The translations under genes and the position numbers were made by a program. Below the pieces are notes generated by a model, which worked only from the letters and a program-made list of their open reading frames with translations, ran no database searches and had not been told where the DNA came from. Below, piece after piece: positions 41,637-60,742 of a stretch of 64,000 nt of DNA (the stretch's first letter is position 1; each line of letters starts with the position of its first letter). The stretch is from a virus (lineage: Duplodnaviria; Heunggongvirae; Uroviricota; Caudoviricetes): IMG/VR virus record IMGVR_UViG_3300032167_007646; one strand, given 5' to 3'.

Positions 41637-42161
41637 TTACATTTTTTCTAACTGTGTTGCTTTTAATTCTAAATGTTTCATAAAATTTTCAGTTGTTTTT
41701 TTACCCTCTATATCTGAAAACTCTAAATTCATCATACATTCTCTATATTTATTTTCCATACCTTTTATAAGAGTCTTTCGTATATCAGATAACATTCTGT
41801 ATGTATTTTCATTAGTCATACCATCACCTATCATACAAAAACCAATTTCACTTGCTAATTGTAAAATTCTAAACCCGCTATCTGTCTTCTCTAATTTATA
41901 AGTATAACTACCCTCACGCACTAGACCTAAACAATAATTTATCAATTTTACAAAATTATTCAAATGTTCATCAGTTAAATTACCATTCTTTATTTCAACT
42001 GTATTTATTTGCCCTACTTTCATACGTTGTATTTTATTCTTTACAGCAGATTTACTATGATTTCTAAATTTTCTATGTATATCTTCTACTGTCAATCCTT
42101 CTTCCAAAAATTTCAATAATTTTAACTCTTCTGATTTAGTCCAAATTGCCATCATAAACAC
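41637..42161 (-). CDS. Hypothetical protein with an N-terminal Myb/SANT-like HTH
   Basis: 'WTKSEELKLLKFLEEGLTVEDIHRKF...' resembles the repeats of the 50119-52923 helicase. Confidence 0.35.
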   Translation of the reverse strand: MFMMAIWTKSEELKLLKFLEEGLTVEDIHRKFRNHSKSAVKNKIQRMKVGQINTVEIKNGNLTDEHLNNFVKLINYCLGLVREGSYTYKLEKTDSGFRILQLASEIGFCMIGDGMTNENTYRMLSDIRKTLIKGMENKYRECMMNLEFSDIEGKKTTENFMKHLELKATQLEKM

Positions 42162-46622: not shown

Positions 46623-46830
46623 CTTCCATTAACTATTTTTGCATCAAATATTTATTTTATACTATAATTATAACATAAAAGGGCAGTTTTGTCAACAATA
46701 AAATTGAAAAACTACCCTTTTATATAATAAAATTTTATTAATCCATTTAGAAATCAATCTTATATCAATTTCCATACGCTAAAAGAACATACATACAAAT
46801 CTTCACAACGACCTACATTTTTATTATATC

Positions 46831-47592
46831 TCAATAATAGTTCATTGGATTAACTCTTGTATCACTATTACTACCAGTCCATACCTCATAATGTAAATGA
46901 TTACCCGTTGAATTTCCTGTTGTTCCAACTCCACCAATTACATCACCCTGAGATACCTCTTGATTTACAGTCACATTTATATATCTTAAATGTGCATACA
47001 AAGTTTTTCCTCCGTCACTATGTTGCAATACAACACAATTACCATAACCACCATTCCAACCCGAAGAAATGACTGTAGCATTTTTTGCCGCTTTTACAGG
47101 AGTACCACTTGGAGCAGGAATATCTATTCCTGAATGATATTCTCTCCCGTGATAAGGGCAATTACGCCATCCATATGGAGAACTTAAATTATAATAACCA
47201 TCAACTGGCCATAAATATGTAGTTGAAGACTCTAAATTATCTATTTCACGAACACCTGCTAATTTATTATTTGCAACATATTCTTCTTCAAACTCTACTA
47301 TTTTAAGTGAACTTACACTCTCCATAGCATTCTCCACATTCTCAATACTATCTTCTGTTATACCCTTAGAATTCTCTAATTCACTTGGGATATCCTCAGT
47401 ATTTGACGCTATCTCATAACTTTCTAATACTTCCTGTTCTAATTCAAATAACGCTTCTATCTGAACGTCATCAATCTTATAATCAACTGACTTTTCACCA
47501 TATACTAATGTACCAAACAACAGAATCAAAACAAATACTGCTATTAGACACAAAAAAGTATTTTTCATTTTACTTGATATCAAACAAATCAA
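46831..47592 (-). CDS. Secreted M23 (LytM-type) peptidase
   Basis: Signal peptide. 'HSGIDI' and 'HLHYEVW' zinc-binding motifs. Confidence 0.7.
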   Translation of the reverse strand: MICLISSKMKNTFLCLIAVFVLILLFGTLVYGEKSVDYKIDDVQIEALFELEQEVLESYEIASNTEDIPSELENSKGITEDSIENVENAMESVSSLKIVEFEEEYVANNKLAGVREIDNLESSTTYLWPVDGYYNLSSPYGWRNCPYHGREYHSGIDIPAPSGTPVKAAKNATVISSGWNGGYGNCVVLQHSDGGKTLYAHLRYINVTVNQEVSQGDVIGGVGTTGNSTGNHLHYEVWTGSNSDTRVNPMNYY

Positions 47593-47776
47593 CCTTTCCT
47601 ATATCCACATTTGGCTGAAAAGATTTGTTTGTTAATTCTTTTAACTTTTGAACAACTGAGATAAATATATTATACCATAATTTTCCTTCAAAGTCAATAA
47701 GTAGAAGGCAAAAAAGTTACAAAATTATTTCAAAAGTCTTAAAAACAACCTTATTTCAATAATAAAAGTTATAAAA

Positions 47777-48553
47777 TTAAATTAAAGTAGCCATAGATAA
47801 TATCCAAGAAATTATACCATACAAACCACCAAATAATATATAAAAAAATGATAATAAAGATAATATAATCTTTATTTTTATCTTTTTTATTCCTTTTTTC
47901 TTTACTTTATATCTTATTATACAAATTATCATATAGATTAAATATCCTATAGAAAAAGAACTAAGAATAATATCTGCAATAACCATAATAGGTTTAACCA
48001 TTTTATAAACTTTATAAGATGAAGATGAACCCATCTTATTGTAATACCCCAATGAAGCCACTATCACAATAGAACCTAAATAACTATTATGTTTCATTAA
48101 ATCTGAGGTAAAAAAATTAAAGTCATCAAAAATTTCTTCATATAAATCTACATTTGAAAAAAATTCTATAAAACAATTAATATTATTTCTTTTTACACTT
48201 TCTTCCACAATACTTTCCTCAATATCCTTACAATAAATTATTATCTTTTCTTCATCAAATATTGCAGCAGTAAATTCTAATTCTTTTCTACCATTTCCTA
48301 TTCTTATTTCTTTCTCTGTTTCATATCCAAATTCTTTATTATATTCTATTAAAGCAGACTCTAAAATTTCAAATGTTTTTTCATTTTTATAGTAATATTC
48401 ATATACACAAACATCTACTGTTTCAATTATTTCAACATCATTTACAAGACCTACTTCTTCAACAGTAGAATGAGGAACTATTGCATTTACAGAAACACTA
48501 AATAACATTATAAATACAAATAATAAACTTATAAAACGTTTCATTATAATCAA
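47777..48553 (-). CDS. Membrane protein with N-terminal signal and C-terminal TM helices
   Basis: 258-aa ORF. Confidence 0.4.
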   Translation of the reverse strand: MIIMKRFISLLFVFIMLFSVSVNAIVPHSTVEEVGLVNDVEIIETVDVCVYEYYYKNEKTFEILESALIEYNKEFGYETEKEIRIGNGRKELEFTAAIFDEEKIIIYCKDIEESIVEESVKRNNINCFIEFFSNVDLYEEIFDDFNFFTSDLMKHNSYLGSIVIVASLGYYNKMGSSSSYKVYKMVKPIMVIADIILSSFSIGYLIYMIICIIRYKVKKKGIKKIKIKIILSLLSFFYILFGGLYGIISWILSMATLI

Positions 48554-48611
48554 CTCCCTTTATCAATTATAATATTTTTTGTCCATATTTTACAAATTAC
48601 TGCACAATAAA

Positions 48612-48636
48612 GTAGGGGTTCTGAAAGAACCCCTAC
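48612..48636 (-). terminator. GC-rich hairpin terminator
   Basis: GTAGGGGTTC-tgaaa-GAACCCCTAC, perfect 10-bp stem. Confidence 0.55.
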
Positions 48637-48643
48637 AAACTTA

Positions 48644-49960
48644 TTATAATTCTCTTACATAAAAAGTTTCTTCTTCCGTTTCTACAACTATCTCACCATT
48701 TTTTACATAAAAATCTATTGGCTTTTCATCTAAACCAAAGTTAAGATATTCTGCTCTACCATAAAAATCTACAAGATAAAGATTATAAACACTCTTATTT
48801 TTTAAGTACATATTCTTTGGAATATGACCTTTTATAAAACCTAATTGAGAACCATCATCTAATACAATTACACCTATTTCTTCATCAAAACAACCATCTA
48901 ATTCTGAAACTTTCTGTAATTTCTTCAATATCTGCATTGTACCACTATTTATAGCATTATACTCTTTACTACTATCTACACGACTTCCTTTTTCTTTCAT
49001 ACCTGACATTTCCATTAAATTTCTCAAATAGAATTTATGTAAGGCACCATATTGTTTCTTTAATAAACTCTCTACATATCTTAAACCACTTTTATTTACT
49101 AAATCTATAAATACCTCTGATAAATTTTCAATAGATTCTTCTTCCATATTACACTTTTCATTAAAGTTTTCCAATTCTTCCATCATATTATCCAATTCTT
49201 CTATTGAAAATTCTTTTTCAACTTTTTCTACTTTATTACCACACACATTACAGAAATTCCAATTCTCTTTAATAGGAGAACAACAATTTGTGCAATAAAC
49301 ATACTTTGCTTCGCTTTCTTCTTCTTTTAACTTTTCTTTTACTTTCTGAACTTTACTTCTTAGTATTTCTTTATCACAATTATTCAAATCCATAACTCCA
49401 CAAAAAGACGTATTTACAAAAGTCTTTTCTAATTCTTCTGCAAACTTTTCTTCAAACTCTCTCCAATCATAACCTAAATTTGTTACTATTTTATAATATT
49501 TAACTTTAAATAAATATTCTTTTTGTTCATAACTTAAATTAGAACTTTCTTTACTCTCCAAACATTCAGCTAAATACATTAAAAATTTAGTATCTACCCA
49601 ATTTACAATTGGTTCTGCAGCTAAAATATATCTTCCTTGTTTATTAGTTTCTTCCAAACAACCTAATTGTTTTAATACCTTAATATTAGCATTTATTGTA
49701 GCACGACTATACCCTAATTTTTCTGCTAATTCCTGTTGAGTTACATTTACGACACCTAAATCATTAGCCATATCCATTAATAAGAAAAACAATTTTTGAT
49801 ATTTTGGTAATCTAATACTAAAACGACAACCTTTGTCTTTTATAAAACCATCTTCATTATAAACCTGCATATCAAAAGTGTCTCCTAACTTATCTAGTTC
49901 CTCTTTATCTCTTTTTCTCAAATTTTCTAATATTTCTTCTTGTTTCATAATTAAAACCAC
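48644..49960 (-). CDS. Putative transcriptional regulator: wHTH plus C-terminal zinc ribbon
   Basis: 'LAEKLGYSRATINANIKVLKQLGCLEE' HTH and 'CTNCCSPI...CNVCGNK'. Paralog of 53045-53782. Confidence 0.5.
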   Translation of the reverse strand: MVLIMKQEEILENLRKRDKEELDKLGDTFDMQVYNEDGFIKDKGCRFSIRLPKYQKLFFLLMDMANDLGVVNVTQQELAEKLGYSRATINANIKVLKQLGCLEETNKQGRYILAAEPIVNWVDTKFLMYLAECLESKESSNLSYEQKEYLFKVKYYKIVTNLGYDWREFEEKFAEELEKTFVNTSFCGVMDLNNCDKEILRSKVQKVKEKLKEEESEAKYVYCTNCCSPIKENWNFCNVCGNKVEKVEKEFSIEELDNMMEELENFNEKCNMEEESIENLSEVFIDLVNKSGLRYVESLLKKQYGALHKFYLRNLMEMSGMKEKGSRVDSSKEYNAINSGTMQILKKLQKVSELDGCFDEEIGVIVLDDGSQLGFIKGHIPKNMYLKNKSVYNLYLVDFYGRAEYLNFGLDEKPIDFYVKNGEIVVETEEETFYVREL

Positions 49961-50118
49961 CTTTTCTAAATTATTTATATACTATTTTACTAAATAGTAT
50001 AAATTTATGTCCAAACTTTACAACTTTGTCAACATACTTTTACAACTTTGTCCAAAATGGTTTATAACTGTAGATTTAAAATAAAAAACACACATAATTA
50101 TTATGTGTGTTTAATTTA

Positions 50119-51732
50119 TTATTTATCTAAATTTACTCCTATACTGCTAGCCTTCGTAGTAACACTTCTCCAAGTTTTATTTGGTAATAAAGTTAAAATT
50201 TCTTTTCCTAAAAAACTATAATTCATTTTTAATATTTCCACTTCTTCTTCAGTCCATCTATTTAATCTACACTTTATACCCTCTCTTTTTGCTTTTTGAA
50301 CTATTTTATGAGAACTCCTATGCCCTAAACCATTTTTCTGACATAATTCCGAACCACCTAAAGGATAATACTCTTTTAATATATTCTCCTCTTCAGGAGT
50401 CCAAAAGTCTACAAAGTTTACTTTTAATCCTAATTTAGATACCTGACCCCTTATCGATTGTGGACTTCTATTGAATAAACCATTATCTTGACACAATTTA
50501 ACGCCACCCAATGGATAATATTTTTTTATTATTTCTTTTTCTTCATCAGACCACAAAGTAGGTTCTTTTCCTCTTTTTTGTGTTAATTTCAAATGCTGTG
50601 CATATCGTCGTATCGCACAAATTGTTTTATCTAAACCTTTTTCTTGACATAATTTTGCACCACCTATTTGATAATATTCTTTCATTATATCAATATCTTT
50701 TTCAGTCCAAATAGTATGTGTCATATTAGTTTTTACTCCTAAAATAGACGCACGACCCTCTATACTTTTTTTATCTCTATTCAAACCATTTTTTTGACAT
50801 AATTTATATCCACCTACTGGATAATATCTATTAATAATGTCATCTTCAGCATTAGTATAATATCTACCATATTTTAAGTTTAATTCACGTGCTTTTGTTC
50901 CTATTGATTCTTTACTCCTATTTATACCCTTTTCAATACACAATAGTCCACCGCCTAATGGGTAATATTTTCTTAAAATACTCAATTCTTCTTCTGTCCA
51001 TGAAATTATTTTTACAATTCCTAGCTTTTTTGCTCTTCTATGAATAGCGTGAGTTTCCCTATTACATAAACCATTTTTTATACACTCTTCTACACCACCT
51101 AATGGATAATATTTACAAATGATTTTATCTTCTTTTTCAGTCCAAGGTACCATTCTTTGATAAATTAAACCTAATTGATTTGCTGAAGCTACAATATTAC
51201 TTTTACTCTTATGAGAAAGTCCATTTTCCCTACATAATTTACTTCCACCTAATGGGTAATATTTTCTTAAAATACTTATTTCTTCTTCATTCCATCTATT
51301 TATACCTCTTAAATATGATATACCTAAAACTTTTGCTCTACTTGTAATATTTTGAGAACTCTTTTTTATACCATTTTTTTGACAAGCAGATGAACCACCT
51401 GTTGGATAATATTTACGAATTATTTCATCTTCTAAATCAGACCAATTACCTAAATATTTTATATTTAAAAAAGCAGCCCTAGCATGTATTGCCTGTTTTG
51501 TTCTATTTATTCCTTTTTCAAGACAAAGAACTACACCACCCAATGAATAATATTTACTAATTATTTCATCTTCAAAGCTTTCCCAAATATTAACTAATCT
51601 TTTAACTCCTAAAAGACTTGCTCTTGCATATATTGCTTCAATAGACCTATTAATACCTTTTTCTTTACAAACTGAAGCACCACCCGTAGGATAATATTTA
51701 AAAATAATATCATCTTCTATTTTTGTCCATTT
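50119..51732 (-). repeat. Eleven tandem coding repeats of ~135-150 bp (Myb/SANT-like modules)
   Basis: DNA-level recurrence, e.g. 'ccacctaatgggtaatattttcttaaaatact' near 50950 and 51240. Confidence 0.7.
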
Positions 51733-52923
51733 TTCACTATAAATAACATTATGAATATTGTCTAAAACTTCCATAATATCCTTGCAATAACTAGATACAA
51801 TTATTTTCTTTTCATCATGACTATTTTCAAATTTATTTAAGTTCAATTTTTTATTTATTTCTTCTATAATGCTTAAACTAAACTTTTCATAACCCTCTAT
51901 TCTTTTTAAGTTACCTATAAAATCAAAGATTATTGGAGCTTTACCACCTATTTGTAAAGCCCTACCTAATTGCTGCAAATATACTATTGGAGACATTGTT
52001 TTTCTAAGCATTATTACGCCATCAATATCTTTAATATGAACACCCTCATTTAACATATTTATAGAAAGCAAAATATTTATTCCATTCTTCGTTTCATTAA
52101 ACTCATTTAAAACCCTCATATTTCCAGAATAATTACTATATGAATGTAAAATAAAAATATTTACTTTACCATTAAACCAAGAATATACTTTATCTTTGAA
52201 CTCTTCTAATTCTTCTAATCTAGTGAAGAAAGCTATCCATTTTTGATTACAACCCAGATTTACTGTTTCTTTTTGAATAATTTTACCTATACTATAATTA
52301 TTTTCTAAATTTGATACTACACTTTTAATATCCGTAGAAAATTTCTTATTATGCTTTTCTATTTTATCAAATAAATCTTTTTCATACCCATAATACGAAA
52401 CAACATACTTAAAAGTAGGAAGCACACCTGATACTACGGCATCAACAATGTTAAGACCATTTACTACATTACCTTTAAAGAATTCCTCTGACATATCTCT
52501 TTCATTATCAAGGTATCTTACAGGTGTAGCAGAAAGACCAACTGTTTTACAACCTTTTGATTCTGCTCTATCACAAAGCATTTCTACCTTTCTACCCCAA
52601 GTTTCTGCACCTATTCTATGAAATTCATCCAAGATAATAAGAGAAACCTTTTCACCAAGTTCCTCTATCTGATTATTCAAAAGCATTGAAATACCTTTAT
52701 ATGTATAGAAAATAACATTTTCACTATTTACACCCAAGTTCATTCTATAATTTTCAAGAATTGCATTTGTAGGTGCAATAACCAAAACATTAACATAGTC
52801 CTCAATCAAAGAACTAGCAATAACACCTTTTCCTGTTCCTGTAGCCTGAACAATACAGACACGAGAAGATGTCTTTAATCTTTCAATAACCTCATCATAT
52901 ACTATTTTATTATGTTCTAACAT
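50119..52923 (-). CDS. DExH-box helicase (SF2, type-III-restriction-res-like) fused to 11 tandem ~45-aa Myb/SANT-like repeats
   Basis: Walker A 'ATGTGKG', 'ILDEFHRIG', 'QQLGRALQ'. Eleven repeats of 'W(T/S)xEE(D/E)xI(L/I)xKYYPxGGxxLCxxNG(L/I)NRSxxSIxxRAxxLG(L/I)K'. Confidence 0.7.
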   Translation of the reverse strand: MLEHNKIVYDEVIERLKTSSRVCIVQATGTGKGVIASSLIEDYVNVLVIAPTNAILENYRMNLGVNSENVIFYTYKGISMLLNNQIEELGEKVSLIILDEFHRIGAETWGRKVEMLCDRAESKGCKTVGLSATPVRYLDNERDMSEEFFKGNVVNGLNIVDAVVSGVLPTFKYVVSYYGYEKDLFDKIEKHNKKFSTDIKSVVSNLENNYSIGKIIQKETVNLGCNQKWIAFFTRLEELEEFKDKVYSWFNGKVNIFILHSYSNYSGNMRVLNEFNETKNGINILLSINMLNEGVHIKDIDGVIMLRKTMSPIVYLQQLGRALQIGGKAPIIFDFIGNLKRIEGYEKFSLSIIEEINKKLNLNKFENSHDEKKIIVSSYCKDIMEVLDNIHNVIYSEKWTKIEDDIIFKYYPTGGASVCKEKGINRSIEAIYARASLLGVKRLVNIWESFEDEIISKYYSLGGVVLCLEKGINRTKQAIHARAAFLNIKYLGNWSDLEDEIIRKYYPTGGSSACQKNGIKKSSQNITSRAKVLGISYLRGINRWNEEEISILRKYYPLGGSKLCRENGLSHKSKSNIVASANQLGLIYQRMVPWTEKEDKIICKYYPLGGVEECIKNGLCNRETHAIHRRAKKLGIVKIISWTEEELSILRKYYPLGGGLLCIEKGINRSKESIGTKARELNLKYGRYYTNAEDDIINRYYPVGGYKLCQKNGLNRDKKSIEGRASILGVKTNMTHTIWTEKDIDIMKEYYQIGGAKLCQEKGLDKTICAIRRYAQHLKLTQKRGKEPTLWSDEEKEIIKKYYPLGGVKLCQDNGLFNRSPQSIRGQVSKLGLKVNFVDFWTPEEENILKEYYPLGGSELCQKNGLGHRSSHKIVQKAKREGIKCRLNRWTEEEVEILKMNYSFLGKEILTLLPNKTWRSVTTKASSIGVNLDK

Positions 52924-52961
52924 ATTTTCACTTCCTATAATTTTATAGTTTCCTTTATATT

Positions 52962-52990
52962 ATAATACCACAAAATCAATCTTTTGTCAA
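52962..52990 (-). promoter_or_regulatory. Promoter TTGACA-N17-TATTAT with TGn extension, for the helicase gene
   Basis: Minus-strand TTGACA at 52985-52990 and extended -10 'TGGTATTAT'. Confidence 0.55.
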
Positions 52991-53044
52991 CCATTTTATA
53001 TAAATAATAAAAGGGTTAGAATAAACCTAACCCTTTTTAATATA

Positions 53045-53782
53045 TTATTCTTTATCCTCTGACCACCAATTTTCACCACAATTTTGACAATACACCCAAG
53101 AATATTTTACTTCTGCACCACAATGAACACAGAAATGCTTTTTATTCTTTAATTCCATACGCTTTTTATACAAATCACCATATTTTGTTTCAAAACTTAA
53201 CCATCTATAACCCATTGAACGAAGTATCCAATAAAATTTTATTTTGTAATTGTATTCATAATCTGTCATACCTGAATTTTCTGGTGTGAATTTTTTACCA
53301 TCATATTTTTCATCAAATATAATATTTTTTAAGTAATTTTCCATATACTTATATTCTGCACCACGCATAATACCTAATGCTGTCAATTTACAGGTTCCCC
53401 TTTTACTTTCTTTTTCTAAAAAACCTATATCTTTTAACTTTTTAATATAACTATTTATAGTCGCTCTGCTGCAACCTAATTTTTCACCTAATTCTTTTTG
53501 AGTTAAAGATACTGTTCCATCTAACTCTATTTTATCTAAAATAAGAAAAAGAAAACGCATATATTTTGGAAAACTTAAACTACAATGCTTTGACTTTATT
53601 ATATCATTATCTTTTAATCCTATTTCTTCTGATACTCTCTTTTCTGACGAATTATGAATACCTGTTAATAAAGAAGCAACTTCCTCTGAACTCATATTTT
53701 CAATACATACATTTGACATAAATTTAAACCTCCAATATTTTATTATACTATAATAGGTATAACTGTTTATAAATATGTCCAA
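53045..53782 (-). CDS. Putative transcriptional regulator: wHTH plus zinc ribbon (paralog of 48644-49960)
   Basis: 'LGEKLGCSRATINSYIKKLKDIGFLEKE' and 'CVHCGAEV...CQNCGEN'. Confidence 0.5.
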   Translation of the reverse strand: MDIFINSYTYYSIIKYWRFKFMSNVCIENMSSEEVASLLTGIHNSSEKRVSEEIGLKDNDIIKSKHCSLSFPKYMRFLFLILDKIELDGTVSLTQKELGEKLGCSRATINSYIKKLKDIGFLEKESKRGTCKLTALGIMRGAEYKYMENYLKNIIFDEKYDGKKFTPENSGMTDYEYNYKIKFYWILRSMGYRWLSFETKYGDLYKKRMELKNKKHFCVHCGAEVKYSWVYCQNCGENWWSEDKE

Positions 53783-53840
53783 ACTTATACATTTATGTCA
53801 AAGAAAATAAAAATTATTTGACATTTCTATATAACTGTAG
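53783..53840. promoter_or_regulatory. Candidate operator: inverted repeat ATGTCAAA-N14-TTTGACAT plus a direct ATGTCCAAAC half-site
   Basis: Read directly: '...aatatgtccaaacttatacatttatgtcaaagaaaataaaaattatttgacattt...'. Confidence 0.4.
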
Positions 53841-53872
53841 TAAAAAAAATATAGGGTTAATATGAATTAACC

Positions 53873-54463
53873 CTATTCTATATTAAATTTATCTATTTCT
53901 TCATCACTCATATCTAAATACCAATCTAAACACATAGAACATACTGTAAAACATTTACCCGTTATATTATCCATTACAGCCAATATTCTTTGTGGTTTAT
54001 ACTCAAATATCTCTTCATCTAATTCATTAGTACATTTATGACTTAAACCTTCTACAGATTTTGTTTCAAAAATCTCTATACAATATTCATCATTTGTAAT
54101 AGTACAATACCAATTCTCTTTTATTAATTTTAACAAGTGAAGATAATCTTTATTCCCCATTACAAAACCATAATGTTCCTCAATATACTTTAATACTGTT
54201 TCAAACATTTCTGTTCTACTCAATATATTTGAACTGTCTTTTCTGGCTATCATAACTTTACCATTTTCATCCTTAAACTTTAAGGACATTTTACGCATTT
54301 TTCTACCATCCACAGCAAATATATCTTCTAAATATTTACCTTTATACTCTATTTTAAGTTCTTGATGAACTTTTTTACCCCATTTACTTATTATACAAAC
54401 AAAATTATTATTACAATATTTATCAAATAATTTCAACGATTTTATATTATCATATGCTTCCAT
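53873..54463 (-). CDS. Hypothetical protein (Cys/His-containing)
   Basis: 196-aa ORF. Promoter TTGACT-N17-TATAAT at 54493-54521. Confidence 0.35.
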   Translation of the reverse strand: MEAYDNIKSLKLFDKYCNNNFVCIISKWGKKVHQELKIEYKGKYLEDIFAVDGRKMRKMSLKFKDENGKVMIARKDSSNILSRTEMFETVLKYIEEHYGFVMGNKDYLHLLKLIKENWYCTITNDEYCIEIFETKSVEGLSHKCTNELDEEIFEYKPQRILAVMDNITGKCFTVCSMCLDWYLDMSDEEIDKFNIE

Positions 54464-54539
54464 TATACCACCTCATATATTATCATGTTTATATTATACC
54501 AAATTACTTTAATTAAGTCAATAACTAAAAATGAAAAAG

Positions 54540-54602
54540 ATTGGACTATTTTAAAATAATAATCCAATCTTTTTCTGTGCATAACACGCCAAATTGCCAA
54601 CT
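54540..54602 (-). ncRNA. Candidate small RNA unit E: promoter 54610-54638, terminator hairpin AGATTGGA...TCCAATCT plus U-run
   Basis: Consensus promoter, then ~65 nt with no ORF, then an intrinsic terminator. Confidence 0.3.
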
Positions 54603-54654
54603 TGGATATATTATAACATACTTCTTTATAAAAGTCAATAGGTAATTAATTTTT

Positions 54655-54798
54655 TATTTAAAAGTAATAATCCATTGTATTTTCTAAATACAATGGACTA
54701 TCTGGCTTTTGCTTATTTTTAAATAATATAGATATTTTTGATTGCACTATAACAATCAAAGGAGTGATTTTATAAGTAAGAACAATATACCTTACCTA
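54655..54798 (-). ncRNA. Candidate small RNA unit D: promoter 54806-54834, terminator TCCATTGTATT-tagaaa-AATACAATGGA
   Basis: Promoter, ~140 nt with no ORF, terminator. Confidence 0.3.
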
Positions 54799-54879
54799 CA
54801 AATATATAATAACACAAAATAAATATATTGTCAACACCTATGCAAAAATATTTTTTAAAAGAAAATAACCCACTCAACT

Positions 54880-54996
54880 CCCCCAAAGTCAAGTAGGCTA
54901 CTTCCCTATATATAATTATAAAATATGGAGGGTTTCTGGTAAAAACCCTACCAAGAAGGAGACGCATAGGCAGGAAAACGAATAAAACCTACCCAG
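54880..54996 (-). ncRNA. Candidate small RNA unit C: promoter 55004-55032
   Basis: Promoter then ~115 nt with hairpins (GGGTTT...AAACCC). The terminator is less clean. Confidence 0.25.
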
Positions 54997-55039
54997 CAAT
55001 TATATTATAACATTTTTATGAATATTTGTCAATAAGGAG

Positions 55040-55149
55040 AGAGAAAAAATTTAAAAAGAAATAATCCTACAACCCATAAGGAAGCAGGATTATCTCAACA
55101 AAGGATATTTATTATGATTTATATAGTCTTTGAACTCACTCTCTGACTA
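55040..55149 (-). ncRNA. Candidate small RNA unit B: promoter 55157-55185, terminator AATCCTGC...GTAGGATT plus U-run
   Basis: Promoter, ~110 nt with no ORF, terminator. Confidence 0.3.
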
Positions 55150-55204
55150 TAAATATATTATAACAAAATATTTTTTATTTGTCAATAACCACATCAAAAT
55201 TTCT

Positions 55205-55370
55205 TTTTAAAAGAAAGGAGGGGAGTGCTATGTCCAAACACTCCCAATGGAAAAATTATGTTTCTTAAAAATCAAAAGAAACAAAGCAATAGCAAAGATG
55301 AAAGAGGTTAAAGTGGAAAAACGAAAAACCACTAAATTACAGCAAGGGGGATAGCTGTCTTTCACCTTAC
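55205..55370 (-). ncRNA. Candidate small RNA unit A: promoter 55378-55406, terminator GGGAGTG...CACTCCC plus U-rich tail
   Basis: Promoter, ~165 nt with no convincing ORF, terminator. Confidence 0.3.
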
Positions 55371-55424
55371 ATTTATTATTATAACACACATTTCAACTTT
55401 TGTCAACCATTTTTTTTATTTTAA

Positions 55425-55500
55425 TAAAAAGAATTTTGGTGAGTTTAAAAACTCACCAAAATTCTTGTAAATAAGGATGTTTCCCTATTTGTAGTTTCTA
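55425..55500 (-). ncRNA. Candidate small RNA unit G: promoter 55508-55536, terminator TTTTGGTGAGTTT...AACTCACCAAAA
   Basis: Promoter, ~75 nt, terminator. Confidence 0.3.
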
Positions 55501-55571
55501 TATTACTATTATACCATTATTATATTCATTTGTCAATAAACAAACTTAATTTTTATAAACTAAAATATAAA

Positions 55572-55598
55572 GGGTGGGTTCGTAAAACGAACCCACCC
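55572..55598 (-). terminator. GC-rich perfect-hairpin terminator (family member 1)
   Basis: GGGTGGGTTCG-taaaa-CGAACCCACCC, downstream of the BI-1-family gene. Confidence 0.6.
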
Positions 55599-55612
55599 TA
55601 AATTATGTAATA

Positions 55613-56281
55613 TTAGTCATCAGACTTACCAAAGATTTCAAGAAGTCTAATAAAGAGATTTATAATATCCAAATAAATATCAAGTGCAGAATCTACAGCA
55701 TTATCTACAGTCTTAGGATAACTCTGTGCTTTATACCAGTCATAACCAATATATAATGAGAAAATAACTACAAAAATCCAATTAAATATTGGTGCTGCAA
55801 TACCAAAGAGCATACAAATTAACTCTGCAATAATACCAAAAAGTAACGAGAAAAACAATGTTCTACCAAGTCCTGCAAAGAATTTAGGAAAAACAGTTGT
55901 AGAAATCATCATTACAGCAGTAATACCACCTGTTGCTAAGAATGCAGATTTAATATCCACACTTGAATATCCTTGCAAAGCAACACTCAACACTGCACCA
56001 ACAGGAACAACCACAAGATTATAACCTATAAAACTGATAATAGGATTACTTGACTTTACAGCCATAATAATACCAATGATACATGAAATAAAATACCCAA
56101 TAATTAAAGTCCAGGGATTCATAGCCATAAATACATCAGAATAAAAATGGACTATTAGAACATTTACAATGAAACCCCAAAGGAGAACAAGACCTATAAT
56201 ACCATTATAAACATTTCCATTTAAGGTGTCTTTTAGACCTGAACTCATACGAGCCATTTTTCTCTCTTTACCATTAAACAT
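55613..56281 (-). CDS. Bax-inhibitor-1/YccA (TMBIM) family membrane protein
   Basis: Seven TM helices. C-terminal 'DSALDIYLDIINLFIRLLEIF' is typical of the family. Confidence 0.6.
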   Translation of the reverse strand: MFNGKERKMARMSSGLKDTLNGNVYNGIIGLVLLWGFIVNVLIVHFYSDVFMAMNPWTLIIGYFISCIIGIIMAVKSSNPIISFIGYNLVVVPVGAVLSVALQGYSSVDIKSAFLATGGITAVMMISTTVFPKFFAGLGRTLFFSLLFGIIAELICMLFGIAAPIFNWIFVVIFSLYIGYDWYKAQSYPKTVDNAVDSALDIYLDIINLFIRLLEIFGKSDD

Positions 56282-56322
56282 TTAACATTACCACCTTTTT
56301 ATTTTTTCAAGATTTGATTATA

Positions 56323-56351
56323 TTATAACATAAATATTACTTTTTGTCAAC
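56323..56351 (-). promoter_or_regulatory. Promoter TTGACA-N17-TATAAT (TGn-extended) for the BI-1-family gene
   Basis: Minus-strand TTGACA at 56346-56351 and TATAAT at 56323-56328. Confidence 0.6.
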
Positions 56352-56420
56352 TATTTTTTGTAAATTTAATATTTTATTAAAATCTTATATTTACAAATAT
56401 TCTCTATAATTCTAAATTAA

Positions 56421-56447
56421 GGGTGCGTTTGTGAAACAAACGCACCC
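56421..56447 (-). terminator. GC-rich perfect-hairpin terminator (family member 2, with compensatory changes)
   Basis: GGGTGCGTTTG-tgaaa-CAAACGCACCC. Confidence 0.55.
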
Positions 56448-56469
56448 GCCTATTTGAGATATTAGATTT

Positions 56470-56702
56470 AAAATAATAAACCCACAGGTTAATATTTCAA
56501 ACCTGTGAGTCTATTATAAAAATGAGATAAAAAAATGAATAATAAAAAATATATTATAAAGAAAAAACAGAAAAAGAATAGTTTTCTCTTATTGTAGAAA
56601 GGAGTGGGGTTATCAAAGGAGATTAAAGATAACCCCAAAATGCAATATGAATTATAATTGTTAGTCGCATGGAAAAAATTACAAACCAACAAACCTTTTA
56701 AC
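56470..56702 (-). ncRNA. Candidate small RNA unit F (~230 nt): promoter 56710-56738, terminator CACAGGTT...AACCTGTG
   Basis: The only ORF in the unit (56489-56704) is low-complexity (FFF/LLL) and starts at the predicted transcription start. Confidence 0.25.
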
Positions 56703-56746
56703 AATTATTATTATAACACAATTTTTTACTTTTGTCAACTATTTTT

Positions 56747-57016
56747 TTAAATATTATTTAATAAATCTACAAAATTATTGTATTCACAAAGAGTTCTCTC
56801 TGTCCTACCATCATCACTCACATATTTAATCTTATCAGAATAAACACAAATTTCATCATAAGTACCAAATCTTAAACTACGAAGTACAAAAGTATCCTCT
56901 TTTTCATCCAAATAAATATCTATACGAGGATTAGATTGAAGTAATCTATTATACTCCATATCATACTTATACATACCACGAACCTTTGAAATTACATCTC
57001 TTATCAATTTTTCCAT
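56747..57016 (-). CDS. Hypothetical protein
   Basis: 89-aa soluble ORF. Last gene of the five-gene unit. Confidence 0.35.
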   Translation of the reverse strand: MEKLIRDVISKVRGMYKYDMEYNRLLQSNPRIDIYLDEKEDTFVLRSLRFGTYDEICVYSDKIKYVSDDGRTERTLCEYNNFVDLLNNI

Positions 57017-57033
57017 TTCTATAACACCCCTTA

Positions 57034-57252
57034 TTATTTAGTTTCTTTATTTACTTCTACTTCTTCAGCTTCCTCTGGAAAGGCTTTTGGCATTAAATAA
57101 ATCAATAATATTGCTATACTACCAACAAAACCCACAATGTAAATAAAAATACCTAACCAAAGATTATAATTTATTACAAACGCACTTGCAATAGTTAAAA
57201 GAAGTCCTACAAAAATCAATTTCAACATATTTATACCACCTTTATTAAACAT
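57034..57252 (-). CDS. Small membrane protein
   Basis: 72-aa ORF with two TM helices. Confidence 0.35.
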   Translation of the reverse strand: MFNKGGINMLKLIFVGLLLTIASAFVINYNLWLGIFIYIVGFVGSIAILLIYLMPKAFPEEAEEVEVNKETK

Positions 57253-57526
57253 TATTTAAGTCATCTGTAAAATTACTTATAAATACAAATAAACCCATTA
57301 TTGCAATAAGTGCTGCTACAACAAATAAAGGTATATGAACTGACATTACAAGCAACTGTAAAACTGTATGAATATAAGGGTTCTGAAAAGCTATATTGGT
57401 CCAATCCAAGCACCAATTATAAGAATTACTTAAAAGAGCACATCCTAATACTCCTATACTCATTAAAACACAACATATTACAAAACTTAAAATTAAATTT
57501 CCTATACTCTTAAATACTCTTTTCAT
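57245..57526 (-). CDS. Small membrane protein
   Basis: 93-aa hydrophobic ORF. Confidence 0.35.
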   Translation of the reverse strand: MKRVFKSIGNLILSFVICCVLMSIGVLGCALLSNSYNWCLDWTNIAFQNPYIHTVLQLLVMSVHIPLFVVAALIAIMGLFVFISNFTDDLNNV

Positions 57527-57821
57527 TTTTTACTCCTTTTTCTTCAAAACAACAACCTATAAAAACGACTATACCAACATATAATATATACGCAAAAATA
57601 CCACTTAAAATCATTGAGAGTATAACAGGTATTATCAATAAAATAATCTCTATAAAAATATTACCAAACTTTTCAACTAATTTAGTATATAACATACTTA
57701 AAAGTTCATATAAGCAATAAAAACCTGAAACTCCTATTGTACTAAACAATGTAAGTACAATTATACCAAATACTTTATCTTTTAAATTTCTTATCATATT
57801 AATACCCTCTACTCTCATCAT
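57510..57821 (-). CDS. Small membrane protein
   Basis: 103-aa hydrophobic ORF. Confidence 0.35.
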   Translation of the reverse strand: MMRVEGINMIRNLKDKVFGIIVLTLFSTIGVSGFYCLYELLSMLYTKLVEKFGNIFIEIILLIIPVILSMILSGIFAYILYVGIVVFIGCCFEEKGVKNEKSI

Positions 57822-58164
57822 TAATATGATTAAACGCTGTAAAACTACTTATAAAAATAATTATACCACTTAAACCAAATACTAAACACAAACCAAGTAT
57901 AAATAAGCCTATTGTTAAGGAAAAAATACCAAGTGTAACTGAAAAGATTAACCACCAATTACAACCTACAAGAAAAGTCCAAGTCCATTTTAATCCCATT
58001 ATTACACCATAGGCACAAATACCTGAAATACTTAATAAAAAACTACAAAGTAATAATGAACCCAATACAAACAATATTGCAGTAATTATTTTTAATTTTT
58101 TATAATCTTTATGAACGATATTAAGGTCATTACAATTTACATTTAATATACCCATTTGTTTCAA
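57799..58164 (-). CDS. Small membrane protein
   Basis: 121-aa hydrophobic ORF. Promoter at 58179-58207. Confidence 0.35.
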   Translation of the reverse strand: MKQMGILNVNCNDLNIVHKDYKKLKIITAILFVLGSLLLCSFLLSISGICAYGVIMGLKWTWTFLVGCNWWLIFSVTLGIFSLTIGLFILGLCLVFGLSGIIIFISSFTAFNHINDESRGY

Positions 58165-58178
58165 CTCCTTTTACAAGT

Positions 58179-58207
58179 ATTATAACATAAATAATACTTT
58201 TTGTCAA
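58179..58207 (-). promoter_or_regulatory. Promoter TTGACA-N17-TATAAT (TGn-extended)
   Basis: Minus-strand TTGACA at 58202-58207 and TATAAT at 58179-58184. Confidence 0.6.
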
Positions 58208-58291
58208 CATTTTTTATTAAAATTTCAATAAATTTCTTTAGTTTTACTTATTTTAACTATATTTACTTATACCTATTCATCAAACAATAAA

Positions 58292-58318
58292 GGTGGGGTT
58301 CGTGAAACGAACCCCACC
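58292..58318 (-). terminator. GC-rich perfect-hairpin terminator (family member 3)
   Basis: GGTGGGGTTCG-tgaaa-CGAACCCCACC. Confidence 0.55.
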
Positions 58319-58388
58319 ACCTAAAAATACCACTATATTATCAGCATACGCTGATTCCTGCTGGCACAATTTTTATACAATAAAACAA

Positions 58389-58763
58389 TTATCTTCTCTC
58401 TTTAACTATATACTCAACATACTCAAGAACTTCATTGGCTAAAACACGCCTATGAGGGCGTTCTGTACTTACAATACCAGAATATACAGGGTCTAAACCA
58501 TACCTCTTTGCCATTCTATTTAATATACCAATATTCTGAATAACTATATTATGACAATTAGTTCTCCTTGTATCATAATTTGTTAAAGTATATTGATAAT
58601 CCGCTATACTCATATCTTTATCCTTAAATCTTAAAAATGTTTCCATATGATAAATTATACTATGATACTCATGAAAACTCTTTACACACGATTGAATCAT
58701 TTCCAACTCCATACCATCACTACAAACATCAAATAATTTATTTATTACTTCTGCATTTATCAT
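58389..58763 (-). CDS. Hypothetical protein with a possible HEPN-like Rx4-6H motif; start moved to MINAEV
   Basis: 'TRRTNCHN'. RBS GGAAAGGGG before the internal Met. Weak call. Confidence 0.25.
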   Translation of the reverse strand: MINAEVINKLFDVCSDGMELEMIQSCVKSFHEYHSIIYHMETFLRFKDKDMSIADYQYTLTNYDTRRTNCHNIVIQNIGILNRMAKRYGLDPVYSGIVSTERPHRRVLANEVLEYVEYIVKERR

Positions 58764-58779
58764 TATAATAACCCCTTTC

Positions 58780-59499
58780 CTATCTATTACACAAAATTTC
58801 TTCTGCTCTACGAATAATGTCATCTGTTGGTAAAGGTGTTTTCTCTAAAACATAATCTATACCTAACTTTTTATATTTTTCTATACCCATATTGTGATAA
58901 GGTAATACTTCAACTCTATCAACATTACCCAAACTATCTATAAAATCACGCAAACGAAACATATCTAACTCATTATCTGTCAAATCTGGAACTAACACAT
59001 ATCTTATCCAAACTTTTTTACCCTTTCTATCCAAATAACGAGCAAATTTCAATACACTTTCATTTGATACCCCTGTTAATTTCTTATGGACTTCAAGGTT
59101 TATATGTTTTATATCTAATAAAAATAAATCCACAAATTTTACTAATTCATCAAACTTTTTAACATACTCCCAATTAAATAAATAGCCACTTGTATCTACT
59201 GCTACATTATAACCCTTTTCTTTTAACACACGACACAATTCTATCAAAAAGTCTAATTGAACCAAAGGCTCACCACCTGATATTGTTACACCACCATTTG
59301 TCATATAATAACTCTTATTCTTTTCTACTAATTTTACTATTTCTTCAATACTATAATCCTTACACCTATCTAAAAACCAACTCTCAGGATTATGACAATA
59401 TTGACACCTTAAAGGACAACCACCCATAAATAATACAAATCTTATTCCTGGTCCATCTACTGTACCAAAATTCTCATAAGAACTTATTTTTCCTATCAT
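58780..59499 (-). CDS. Glycyl-radical-enzyme activating protein (PflA/NrdG-like radical SAM)
   Basis: 'GTVDGPGIRFVLFMGGCPLRCQYCHNPESW' matches the PflA/NrdG cluster motif. Confidence 0.75.
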   Translation of the reverse strand: MIGKISSYENFGTVDGPGIRFVLFMGGCPLRCQYCHNPESWFLDRCKDYSIEEIVKLVEKNKSYYMTNGGVTISGGEPLVQLDFLIELCRVLKEKGYNVAVDTSGYLFNWEYVKKFDELVKFVDLFLLDIKHINLEVHKKLTGVSNESVLKFARYLDRKGKKVWIRYVLVPDLTDNELDMFRLRDFIDSLGNVDRVEVLPYHNMGIEKYKKLGIDYVLEKTPLPTDDIIRRAEEILCNR

Positions 59500-59510
59500 T
59501 TAATCACCCT

Positions 59511-59954
59511 CTACGCCAAAGCATCACTTAATATTTTATCTAATAACTCATTAAACTCTTTATATTCATCCAATTTTTCTTTTGCCAAATAATCATATTC
59601 AAAATAGCTACGAGTTGAATAATCATAAATATACCATATATCTTCACTTTCACCTATAACAATACTATCTGGCACTTCTTTATCAAAATTATTCAAACAA
59701 AAACCATATATCTCCTGATTTGGAACAAAATACGACACTGTATCATCAACACCATAAATTATATAACCATTAAACTCCAAACCATTTACCATACTTAAAA
59801 ATTTCACATAATCATAAGGCAAACTTGCACCAAAACCTTTTACTTTTATAGCTCTATTAAACCTTTTTAAGATTTTTTCTTCTACACCTTTATTTAATTT
59901 TTCATTATACAATGATAGTTCTTCTTTAATCTTATTTAATTTATCTAACCACAT
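59511..59954 (-). CDS. SMI1/KNR4 (SUKH-1)-like protein
   Basis: 'GASLPYDYVKFLSMVNGLEFNGYIIYG' fits the LPxxYxxFLxxxNG signature. Confidence 0.4.
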   Translation of the reverse strand: MWLDKLNKIKEELSLYNEKLNKGVEEKILKRFNRAIKVKGFGASLPYDYVKFLSMVNGLEFNGYIIYGVDDTVSYFVPNQEIYGFCLNNFDKEVPDSIVIGESEDIWYIYDYSTRSYFEYDYLAKEKLDEYKEFNELLDKILSDALA

Positions 59955-60139
59955 ATCACTAAACCAGCCTTAAATAAAAATAATTTATAATTACCCAAAT
60001 TAATACTTTTCACATGTCTTTATTTATGACCAAGAAAAGCTGTAATGTCAACTAAATAATTAACACATGCCTTTTATTAAACATATCACCTAAACAAAAA
60101 ACCTTTTACTGTTATTACAATAAAAGGCTTTAACTTTAA

Positions 60140-60502: not shown

Positions 60503-60505
60503 AAC

Positions 60506-60742
60506 TTATCTCTCCAAATCATTGTATCTAAATACATCTAATTCACCATTATATTCAAATACTTCTTCACAATTATCAAAGAAACGAAGTTTACCTATTC
60601 TTTCATAATCTGATTTTACACAAACTGCTACTTTATCAGAAGTACCCATATTTACATAAGTCTTATCTATAAGCATATAAACATTACTATCTGTTGGAAC
60701 CTGAAATAAATCCCCAACATTTAACTCTAATACTTTTTTCAT
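60506..60742 (-). CDS. Hypothetical protein
   Basis: 78-aa ORF. Confidence 0.3.
   Translation of the reverse strand: MKKVLELNVGDLFQVPTDSNVYMLIDKTYVNMGTSDKVAVCVKSDYERIGKLRFFDNCEEVFEYNGELDVFRYNDLER

Follow-up and report, generated by a model that had tools for sequence, protein, structure and literature searches.

Helicase gene, catalytic core and flanking genes

The window (the whole 64,000-nt stretch of viral DNA that was analysed) contains, at 50119..52923, a complete gene for a protein of 934 aa (ATG start, stop codon at 50119-50121), as deduced from the open reading frame list and the translation. This gene and the other genes, motifs, units, promoter and hairpins located below are on the minus strand. 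The protein consists of a helicase core (aa 1-398, 51730..52923) followed by an array of eleven tandem Myb/GcrA-like units (aa 399-934, 50122..51729), identified by profile matches. The gene is preceded by a sigma70-type promoter (52962..52990: TTGACA, a 17-nt spacer and TG-n-TATTAT, 11/12 matches, extended -10), and the early region contains no fewer than 12 occurrences of this promoter-type repeat. Hairpin searches detected a terminator-like hairpin directly 3' of the helicase stop codon (50086..50112) and another that closes the upstream RepL-like gene (53009..53037). Given these signals, the helicase gene is a monocistronic unit with its own sigma70-type promoter and terminator.

Both neighbours encode RepL-like proteins. 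The upstream gene (53045..53782, 245 aa) matches Pfam RepL with 24.9 bits (cut-off 20.3) and encodes a winged-HTH and zinc-ribbon protein, with matches to HTH_11, Zn_Ribbon_1 and, in PHROG, to replication-initiator and DnaD-like families. The product of the downstream gene (48644..49960, 438 aa; Pfam RepL 21.8 bits, cut-off 20.3) also combines a winged HTH with a zinc ribbon, and the two proteins are paralogues (31% identical, E 9e-27). The RepL/helicase/RepL order is kept in the related contig L001, and an HTH/DnaD_N-like gene is found upstream of the helicase in L002 and L003. The neighbourhood is not conserved around the distant Myb-array relatives, which sit amid accessory genes of large phages; the link with replication is thus confined to the close clade.

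Repeated DNA that could serve as a target was searched for in the whole window with Tandem Repeats Finder, and in the 38-64 kb region with a repeat search. The repeats found were sigma70 promoters, terminator hairpins, a 22-bp repeat (2.4 copies, 50017-50069) that precedes the downstream RepL-like gene, and an array of a hexamer. The repeated motif of about 11 copies that had been envisaged as a counterpart of the eleven units had no match in the 64-kb window. All of these repeats were rejected as targets of the array; the hexamer array is coding, and specifies the (Cys-Asp)n tail encoded by a small ORF.

The helicase core comprises two RecA-like domains and a helical connector (Pfam, PHROG, Foldseek). 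The original prediction, made from the sequence alone, of an N-terminal DExH-box SF2 helicase was confirmed for aa 1-398: Walker A/motif I (ATGTGKG, aa 26-32) is located at 52828..52848 and motif II (DEFH, aa 98-101) at 52621..52632. The core scored above the Pfam cut-offs (second values) for ResIII (57.5 bits; 22.5), Helicase_C (45; 23.5) and DEAD (38.3; 26), and was matched by the phrog_16 DNA helicase family at 7.5e-36. Foldseek searches returned the dsDNA motors LlaBIII, RadD, SauUSI and XPB (probability 1.00); ISW1a, Chd1 and UvsW were also among the whole-protein fold matches, and the BFVD fold search gave nothing beyond generic SF2 helicases.

In 56 relatives, motifs I, II, III and V and the QQLGR part of motif VI are essentially invariant (96-100%). 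The seven positions of Walker A are 93-100% conserved in these proteins, with GTGK invariant, and the D, E and H of motif II are invariant in relatives. The exception is in motif VI, where the second Arg is missing family-wide (GRAL[QE]). With its catalytic motifs intact, the 934-aa protein is apparently an active SF2 DNA motor (translocase or helicase).

Sequence and fold of the eleven units

Eleven tandem units had been proposed for the C-terminal part, and this number was borne out: the units are 45-52 aa long and start 47-52 aa apart. The units were searched with a family profile made from units of other proteins, and 11/11 matched (i-Evalues from 3e-12 to 5e-21). Because all the units match this independent profile, the repeat array is far beyond chance. 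From the N-terminal side, the units are R1 (aa 399-446, 51586..51729, i-Evalue 7.7e-20), R2 (aa 447-493, 51445..51585, 1.4e-17), R3 (aa 494-543, 51295..51444, 5.8e-17), R4 (aa 544-593, 51145..51294, 2.7e-19), R5 (aa 594-641, 51001..51144, 4.8e-21), R6 (aa 642-688, 50860..51000, 1.8e-18), R7 (aa 689-738, 50710..50859, 8.6e-19), which starts with Y and not W, R8 (aa 739-790, 50554..50709, 4.6e-17), R9 (aa 791-840, 50404..50553, 1.1e-20), R10 (aa 841-889, 50257..50403, 1.3e-20) and the divergent terminal unit R11 (aa 890-934, 50122..50256, 2.8e-12).

The mean pairwise identity between units is 36% for the protein and 53% for the DNA. The repeats had also been described as visible at the DNA level, which holds in part: an 83-nt stretch recurs in 6-8 copies with 60-80% identity, but Tandem Repeats Finder reports no array. 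R4 is most similar to R6 (their first 78 nt are 78% identical), with which it shares a 29-nt exact repeat, the longest in the array.

The Myb/SANT-like character of the units was upheld by profile searches against the PDB, in which the matches were confined to Myb DNA-binding domains (c-Myb 3e-10). The values obtained with the unit profile were 3.2e-10 for 1h88 and 4.3e-10 for 3zqc (single domain 1.3e-6), with further Myb entries, and 0.075 for GcrA. Structure prediction agreed with this assignment: a two-unit AlphaFold model, with R5 as first and R6 as second unit (pLDDT 95.5), was nearest to the GcrA DNA-binding domain and the TRF1 Myb domain, and in this predicted model the unit is a three-helix bundle superimposable on Myb/SANT/GcrA members. 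Other fold matches of the unit were the SANT domains of MTA1, CoREST and NCoR2 and the DNA-binding domains of Chd1 and ISW1a. The full-length AlphaFold model contained confident helical units joined by low-pLDDT linkers, and no inter-unit superstructure could be reliably derived from either the full-length (pTM 0.42) or the two-unit (pTM 0.61) model.

With the Pfam Myb model PF00249, the whole protein scored 41.4 bits (threshold 24.4), each single stretch being below the threshold; isolated units scored 13-14 bits. The first Trp (W1) is 90% conserved in the units, the second Trp position is occupied by L or C and the third by Ala (88%). As only W1 is kept, a pattern shared with GcrA-type and many SANT-type members, the units are Myb-like but not canonical Myb. 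The unit closest to canonical Myb is R11, which keeps the second Trp and includes most of the best Pfam Myb stretch (aa 889-917). Compared with known Myb/SANT/GcrA domains (c-Myb R1-R3, TRF1, Trichomonas MYB3, Caulobacter GcrA), the phage units have one Trp where Myb has three, and the YYPxGG turn is restricted to the phage unit family. Eukaryotic Myb proteins usually have 1-4 repeats, whereas 11 are present here (up to 17 in the unit family), and on a helicase.

The array carries a net charge of +32 and has a pI of 9.5, against 6.1 for the helicase core, and its positive charge is located in the half of each unit that comprises helix 3 and the linker. The residues at unit positions 28 and 36 are basic and conserved, and flank hypervariable positions (34, 35, 38 and 39). 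These four positions align with the base-contact residues of c-Myb R3 (K182, N183, N186 and S187). The variable face is composed of 30% basic, 29% S/T/N/Q and 9% acidic residues. Helix 3 of each module probably lies in the DNA major groove.

A single copy of the module had been reported at the start of the protein encoded at 41637-42161. A distant Myb/GcrA-like module was indeed found there (aa 7-50, 42012..42143; Pfam GcrA E 0.0035, phrog_323 6e-4), but the likeness to the array units is weak (hhalign 74%, E 2.7e-5, over 43 columns) and the module belongs to another subfamily, which is devoid of the YYPxGG turn.

Relatives, array turnover and known systems

Independent contigs encode an identical protein (P0001) and a variant that differs at one residue (P0261). 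The 934-aa protein with one substitution was found on 9 further contigs (JGI, ENA), the longest being 301,593 bp. As its cluster mate P0261 offers one substitution only, it is uninformative on micro-evolution. Repeat numbers were compared across relatives, as originally suggested, and the helicase relatives carry 1-12 units, with a maximum of 14 on the helicase P0124. In close relatives, core identity is 76-84% and array identity 39-51%, with 5-11 copies, and this range of copy number occurs among phages that have cores >80% identical and the same synteny. No positional orthology of units was detected in comparison with the closest 11-unit relative (0.36 on the diagonal, 0.34 off the diagonal). 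R11 alone is kept in position: in reciprocal comparisons, it pairs best with the last units of P0003, P0009 and P0010. The array evolves much faster than the core, and these comparisons suggest that it behaves as an evolutionarily fluid cassette, with rapid gain, loss and reshuffling of units.

The helicase and array architecture is shared by hundreds of relatives. The unit profile has matches in 17,424 clusters of proteins (50% identity), and single proteins contain as many as 17 units. HNH and Mrr nucleases likewise carry fused Myb-type units (P0249 is a relative with an N-terminal Mrr nuclease), and the unit co-occurs with NUMOD-like modules. The DNA-binding character of the unit is indicated indirectly, by the charge distribution and by these nuclease fusions. 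Among the cultured phages of INPHARED, no helicase with an array was found, the best match being 30% identical and limited to the core; the array alone matched six INPHARED records, which have 2-3 units each except for an uncultured faecal phage with about 6. Literature searches for Myb-like helicases in phages, PF03457 and GcrA-like phage proteins retrieved no functional study.

The architecture had been called unusual. The Myb-type variant is real, but the design is less unusual than it seemed, since homologous cellular cores carry 4-12 helicase-associated (HA) domains (PF03457). These HA helicases (ResIII - Helicase_C - PF03457 x n; e.g. WP_190297386.1, 'Helicase associated domain protein', Paenibacillus peoriae) have cores homologous to the phage core (30-41% identity): identity is 36-41% to P0095, P0105 and P0114-P0116 and 30-38% to 80 genomic loci, and all ten of the genomic loci that were sampled encode HA helicases. 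The motif VI variant QQ[LI]GRA is common to them and to the phage protein, and their array of small helical modules likewise begins directly after the core, as it does here from aa 399. The closest HA relatives also occur in phage or prophage early regions, and their function is equally uncharacterised. The HA unit (structure in PDB 2KTA, Bacteroides vulgatus BVU_0683) has 64 aa, compared with about 48 aa for the Myb/GcrA-type unit. According to its title, an NMR study of the HA domain reports DNA binding (Mills et al. 2013, cited in PMC12191111). No PF03457 match was obtained in the phage protein at E<=1 (Pfam), no kinship between HA and Myb units was detectable (profile-profile hhalign probability 4%) and 0/73 complete genomic HA-type relatives contain a Myb-type unit. 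For lack of PF03457 and because the unit profiles are unrelated, the phage protein is classified as a variant of the HA architecture and not as a member. The Myb-type array and the unrelated HA array appear to be interchangeable on homologous cores.

Other systems share parts of the design. In the ISWI and Chd1 remodelers, an SF2 dsDNA motor is likewise followed by Myb-fold modules (SANT-SLIDE) that hold flanking DNA. Those proteins have a Snf2 ATPase, two units and HAND/SLIDE domains and act on nucleosomes, whereas the phage protein has eleven units and none of these; it has no Pfam match to the SNF2 family, and RadD, XPB and Type ISP motors fit better. The likeness is one of analogy and not of membership. 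The strings found in phage homing endonucleases (NUMOD-type; I-TevI, I-HmuI) are also made of small helical modules with flexible linkers, carried by phage nucleases, and the Myb-type unit itself forms an array of 12 on one HNH endonuclease, occurs beside NUMOD-like modules and, in cultured phages, is part of proteins that have an endonuclease annotation (Geobacillus virus E3). Here, however, the partner is a helicase without nuclease, and the unit is not a described NUMOD. Phage SF2 replication and recombination helicases (phrog_16; those of Streptococcus thermophilus phages, encoded beside Sak4; T4 UvsW) are of the same helicase class and belong to replication-type modules, but they have about 450-520 aa, are without repeat array and show low identity (24% for the S. 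thermophilus phage helicases).

Two further assignments were examined. Membership in the SauUSI-like type IV restriction enzymes or PbeA was discarded because the PADLOC and PDB matches cover aa 60-370 of the core only and Pfam finds no nuclease domain. The hallmarks of TALE or zinc-finger-like readers were not found: 469 four-residue signatures were counted in 531 units, with no recurrent classes, on a scaffold that is itself about 36% identical, and the order of units shows no positional orthology.

Proposed DNA anchoring and alternative functions of the array

The array is best read as a multivalent, low-specificity DNA anchor. The protein would be a jumbo-phage early-region SF2 motor, tethered to dsDNA by an eleven-module avidity array and serving in replication or recombination loading, a reading that is given about an even chance of being correct. 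In the C-terminus, eleven helix-turn-helix modules of Myb/GcrA type would be strung into a flexible polybasic chain, and their weak and degenerate contacts would add up and tether the motor to double-stranded DNA; they would not spell one long specific site. Since two RepL-like initiator paralogues enclose the gene in this phage and its close relatives, the most probable function would be to load or hold the motor on phage DNA in replication initiation or recombination. The domain identities, the fold, the intact motifs, the distribution of charge, the variation in copy number, the absence of positional orthology and the synteny were observed directly; that the units bind DNA, that their contacts act by avidity and that the protein serves in replication is what we infer from these observations.

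Alternatively, the hypervariable helix-3 face of each unit could read a few base pairs, so that the array, by the order of its units, could recognise one long or reiterated site (the origin, or a sequence of the host or of a competitor), in the manner of zinc-finger arrays, TALEs and homing endonuclease strings; the fast array turnover would then mirror changing targets. Such sequence reading would fit the hypervariable positions, which are placed on a conserved scaffold exactly at the Myb R3 base contacts, the richness of the variable face in K/R/S/N/Q, the fact that no two units are alike within one protein and the presence of the same units on HNH and Mrr nucleases, enzymes that have to recognise a site. 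It is nevertheless regarded as unlikely: positional orthology is absent even at 84% core identity, the copy number differs (5-11) between phages that have cores >80% identical and the same synteny, the 469 signatures in 531 units yield no discrete residue code, and the 64-kb window is without a matching multi-copy DNA array, its dispersed repeats being sigma70 promoters. In a broader and very unlikely version, the unit would be a rapidly evolvable polydactyl DNA-reading module, shuffled to retarget helicases, HNH and Mrr nucleases. Each unit may then recognise a short DNA element, possibly with methylated bases as in GcrA, and the targets may be host, competitor or own-genome sites.

A function outside phage replication, in host takeover, interference or anti-defence, with the motor and its sticky array acting on the DNA of the host or of a competitor or serving as a decoy that titrates a DNA-binding defence protein, is distinctly unlikely. 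The protein might in that case displace nucleoid proteins or roadblocks, or pair with a separate nuclease. The strong host-type promoter in the early region, the resemblance of the core to restriction-enzyme motors and PbeA, the Mrr nuclease of P0249, the location of distant relatives among accessory genes and the rapidly evolving array, which would suit an arms race, are all compatible with this proposal. However, Pfam finds no nuclease domain in the protein, the PADLOC matches span the generic core only and no nuclease or methylase partner adjoins the gene, the immediate neighbours being the RepL-like initiators. Known decoys, such as Ocr and ArdA, are acidic DNA mimics, the opposite of this strongly basic array. 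There is also a slim chance that the units do not bind nucleic acid and form a SANT-like protein-interaction scaffold or a flexible spacer, as could be argued from the SANT domains of MTA1, CoREST and NCoR2 among the fold matches, the poorly conserved exposed helix-3 face and the single units under the Pfam Myb threshold. Against this stand the net charge of +32, which resides mainly in helix 3 and the linkers, the DNA-binding nature of the best fold and profile matches (GcrA DNA-binding domain, TRF1, c-Myb), the fusion of the unit to nucleases and its replacement on homologous cores by the HA domain (PDB 2KTA), reported to bind DNA in a title cited in PMC12191111. Finally, repeat-containing genes are a known assembly hazard, but the probability that collapsed or mis-assembled repeats created a chimeric ORF is close to nil: no exact internal repeat exceeds 29 nt, the units are at most about 80% identical in DNA, the same protein (one substitution) recurs on the 9 further contigs and hundreds of relatives have the same architecture.

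The Myb-array helicase is genuine, and represents an uncharacterised version of a design that is known but unstudied. A helicase core followed by a variable number of small, putatively DNA-binding modules represents a general design in phages and prophages, in which the slot after the core is filled by modules of no fewer than two unrelated kinds, HA and Myb/GcrA-like. As the Myb-type unit is reused on nucleases, it would be a module that mobile elements employ in various proteins for DNA targeting, and is worth a family definition. If the units were specific, they would represent a new modular DNA-binding scaffold; if the polydactyl reading were true, the 17,000+ clusters would be a large untapped DNA-recognition library and the 11-unit helicase a site-directed DNA motor. 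The answer to the question of avidity versus specificity would explain how a class of early phage motors is directed to DNA.

A helicase core followed by eleven Myb-type units

The helicase-array ORF (50119-52923, minus strand, ATG start) encodes 934 aa and has exactly the boundaries of the original prediction, whose interpretation as an SF2 helicase joined to Myb-like repeats proved correct and the finding real. The motifs quoted there were located at aa 26-32 (ATGTGKG) and aa 98-101 (DEFH). The core (aa 1-398) matched the Pfam families ResIII (2e-15), Helicase_C (1.4e-11) and DEAD, and PHROG 16 'DNA helicase' (7.5e-36); by sequence, the nearest solved proteins were SauUSI (7clg) and archaeal XPB/Rad25. 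In the AlphaFold model of the 934-aa protein (mean pLDDT 79), the core was nearest to the motors of LlaBIII (Type ISP), RadD, SauUSI and XPB, whereas ISW1a, Chd1 and T4 UvsW were lower-ranked structural matches. Across 56 relatives there was essentially no variation in motifs I, II, III and V or in the QQLGR of motif VI, and the protein is therefore expected to be an active NTPase. Motif VI (aa 316-323) reads QQLGRAL[QE]: the second Arg of the SF2 consensus QxxGRxxR was absent from all relatives with Myb-type units or with the unrelated HA module (PF03457), and R306 was invariant, which may reflect a family-specific arginine-finger arrangement.

As predicted, eleven head-to-tail units fill the protein from aa 399 to the C-terminus. 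They start at aa 399, 447, 494, 544, 594, 642, 689, 739, 791, 841 and 890 (spacing 47-52 aa), and the eleventh is divergent. All eleven were matched (i-Evalues 3e-12 to 5e-21) by a profile of 116 units, all from other proteins. On average, pairs of the eleven were 36% identical as protein and 53% identical as DNA, so the units are considerably diverged. The statement that the repeats are visible at DNA level was partly true: a repeat search recovered an 83-nt stretch in 6-8 copies (60-80% identity), but Tandem Repeats Finder detected no array in the gene.

An assembly artefact, which the original prediction had named as fatal to it, was checked for and excluded: the longest exact repeat within the gene is 29 nt, and the protein recurs on independent JGI and ENA contigs. 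An identical protein (P0001) was found on a separate JGI contig of 28.7 kb, and a one-substitution variant (P0261) on nine contigs (JGI and ENA), the longest of 301,593 bp, which makes the element a jumbo phage.

Relatives, module exchange and array turnover

At E<=1e-3 the full-length protein had 1,465 relatives, almost all of which were unnamed metagenomic proteins. Repeat number, which had been proposed for comparison across relatives, varied from 0 to 12 copies per protein (repeat HMM, best 120 of the 1,465), and wherever units occurred in these 120 the array started directly C-terminal of the core. The modal unit spacing was 48 aa. In the closest relatives, which carry 5 to 11 units, cores were 76-84% identical and arrays 39-51%. 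Comparison with the closest 11-unit relative revealed no positional orthology (36% identity between same-position and 34% between different-position units), the terminal unit alone keeping its position. The array is thus a fast-evolving cassette.

Across 185,579 species genomes, 284 core relatives were found. Among the best 80, none of the 73 complete ORFs carried a Myb-type unit, and all ten genomic core relatives scanned were HA helicases, with 4-12 tandem HA modules directly after the core. These proteins share a homologous core and carry their array in the same slot, but the module differs: the HA and Myb-type profiles are unrelated (hhalign probability 4%). The NMR structure of HA is 2KTA, and the title of the corresponding paper, as it stands in the reference list of PMC12191111, 'indicates domain binding to DNA'. 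HA is also joined to PLD nucleases and TniQ target selectors. The HA-type proteins closest to the present one are likewise encoded in the early regions of phages or prophages. One HA helicase, from Dorea sp. 5-2 (KE159759.1, locus L030:6001-8841), has a NusG domain at aa 768-877 (E 7e-9) besides its five HA units, which suggests that the helicase family is tied to transcription elongation/termination in some genomes.

A third array variant, present in two related proteins (P0082 and P0090), consists of textbook-HTH-like units (FTxEEDxYLKENYGKxSxxEIAxxLGRT...). Since HA, Myb-type and HTH-like arrays all occur on related cores, this SF2 core, followed by small DNA-binding modules in variable copy number, is a design established in databases and functionally unstudied in the literature searched. 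The architecture, originally described as unusual, is thus not unique: the present protein is a module-swapped variant of the known, uncharacterised HA-helicase design, one that is common in phage metagenomes.

An exhaustive search of 1.84 billion representative proteins with the unit profile matched 17,424 clusters, 811 of them at E<=1e-30. A single protein held as many as 17 units, and many of the matched proteins were short and lacked a helicase. Among the sampled architectures were a helicase with 14 units, an HNH endonuclease with 12, an Mrr nuclease with helicase and units, and units beside NUMOD-like modules. In INPHARED, the unit occurred in 6 of 50,697 phage records (2-3 copies in five, about six in an uncultured faecal phage), in proteins annotated, where at all, as endonuclease or 'D5-like regulator'; no helicase-array protein was found there in cultured phages.

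Genomic context of the helicase gene

The window has 27.5% G+C and every gene on one strand. Its functions are early and metabolic (thymidine kinase, thymidylate kinase, DNA methyltransferases, radical-SAM activase, M23 peptidase, a second helicase of SF1), with no recognisable structural genes. In the 2854-4080 product (minus), similarity to thymidine kinase is confined to the first 204 of 408 residues, the C-terminal half being unassigned. In a 581-aa DNA methyltransferase (15177-16922, minus), aa 78-202 match part of the PHROG profiles for the anaerobic ribonucleotide reductase large subunit and for helicases, a hint that an intein-like or inserted element is shared. The second helicase (18072-20912, minus, 946 aa) is Dda-like (phrog_1967, 1e-113); its aa 5-874 span only ~565 profile positions, so a large insertion is implied, which may be an intein or an inserted domain. 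A small ORF (32852-32960, minus) ends in a Cys-Asp dipeptide repeat tail (...SCDMSCDCDCDCDCDCDCNCD), recorded by Tandem Repeats Finder as (AATCAC)x9.3, and is followed by a hairpin terminator; the tail may be metal-binding. The 42434-42985 protein (minus) has a weak Myb-like module at its N-terminus, matched by the unit profile at aa 8-48 (E 0.03), and it and the adjacent 41637-42161 gene carry one distant module copy each.

The helicase gene forms its own transcription unit on the minus strand, with a terminator-like hairpin (53037-53009) upstream of the promoter (TTGACA-17-TGnTATTAT, 52990-52962) and a hairpin terminator after the ORF (50112-50086). This promoter belongs to a set of at least 12 near-identical sigma70-type copies in the early region. 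This intergenic repeat (35-50 nt, at least 12 copies within 46663-63784) reads GTTGACAAA - N - TGTTATAATA on the coding (minus) strand, near-consensus sigma70 with an extended -10; examples are at 52958-53007, 54803-54851, 55003-55035, 55156-55188, 55375-55423, 55507-55539, 56319-56367, 56707-56755, 58178-58224 and 62049-62097. These copies explain the dispersed DNA repeats without a link to the array, and mark a promoter-dense early region dependent on host RNA polymerase. Three intergenic copies of a G+C-rich hairpin (GGGTTCGTTTTACGAACCC, minus strand; 55562-55594, 56411-56443, 58282-58314) probably act as intrinsic terminators, used repeatedly to separate early transcription units.

Both neighbours (48644-49960 and 53045-53782, minus) encode winged-HTH and zinc-ribbon proteins above the Pfam RepL threshold (21.8 and 24.9 bits, respectively, against 20.3), with weak matches to phage replication-initiator and DnaD-like PHROGs. 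They are paralogues (31% identity, E 9e-27), the longer (48644-49960) having an additional C-terminal region of ~190 aa. Such duplicated initiator-like genes bracketing a helicase are unusual; a related 64-kb contig (L001), whose helicase has only five units, shows the order RepL-like / helicase / RepL-like as well. In a more distant relative the helicase follows a 531-aa HTH/DnaD_N-like protein, and still more distant relatives have a different neighbourhood. A 22-bp direct repeat (x2.4; 50017-50069, minus strand: TTGGACAAAGTTGTAAAAGTATG / TTGACAAAGTTGTAAAG / TTTGGACA) overlaps the promoter region of the downstream RepL-like gene and could be an operator or iteron.

Array chemistry and possible function

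The array has a net charge of +32 (pI 9.5), against a slightly acidic core (pI 6.1). Every unit carries its positive charge in the helix-3/linker half (+3 to +7), the helix-1 half being neutral to acidic. The proposal that the array acts as an anti-defence decoy finds no support, and so strongly basic a sequence differs from the known acidic DNA mimics. Array linkers were modelled with low confidence (full-length pTM 0.42), and the array is read as beads-on-a-string, not a rigid solenoid.

Together with this polybasic array and its flexible linkers, the protein combines an intact SF2 motor, eleven Myb/GcrA-fold units, fast unit turnover, interchangeability with HA, nuclease fusions of the unit and, in the close clade, RepL-like flanks. 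We give about even odds to a mechanism in which each unit would make a weak, degenerate major-groove contact and avidity from the summed contacts would tether the motor to duplex DNA. The tether would raise loading or residence on phage DNA, and the motor would probably act alongside the RepL-like proteins in initiating replication or in recombination.

The main rival, to which we assign roughly one chance in five, is a polydactyl reader with true unit-specific DNA recognition. Over 558 units, a scaffold is conserved (W1, E5, I8, L9, Y12, Y13, G17, C21, G25, L26, R28, T/S29, I33, R/K36, A37, L40, G41, L42) and helix-3 positions 30, 31, 34, 35, 38 and 39 are hypervariable. By profile alignment, positions 34, 35, 38 and 39 correspond to K182, N183, N186 and S187 of c-Myb R3, its base-contacting residues in the c-Myb-DNA structure. 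Variability at these positions favours a reader, as do the nuclease fusions, but positional orthology is absent, no cognate DNA array was found in the window, and the variable face (30% basic, 29% S/T/N/Q, 9% acidic) carries no discrete recognition code, with 469 four-residue signatures in 531 units. A role in host takeover or interference is somewhat less probable still, and SANT-like protein binding by the units is the least likely of these readings.

Nothing in the helicase-array protein points to a categorically new mechanism. Its Myb-type units are members of a module family that is very large and unannotated, and the array raises a clear, testable question of avidity versus specificity.
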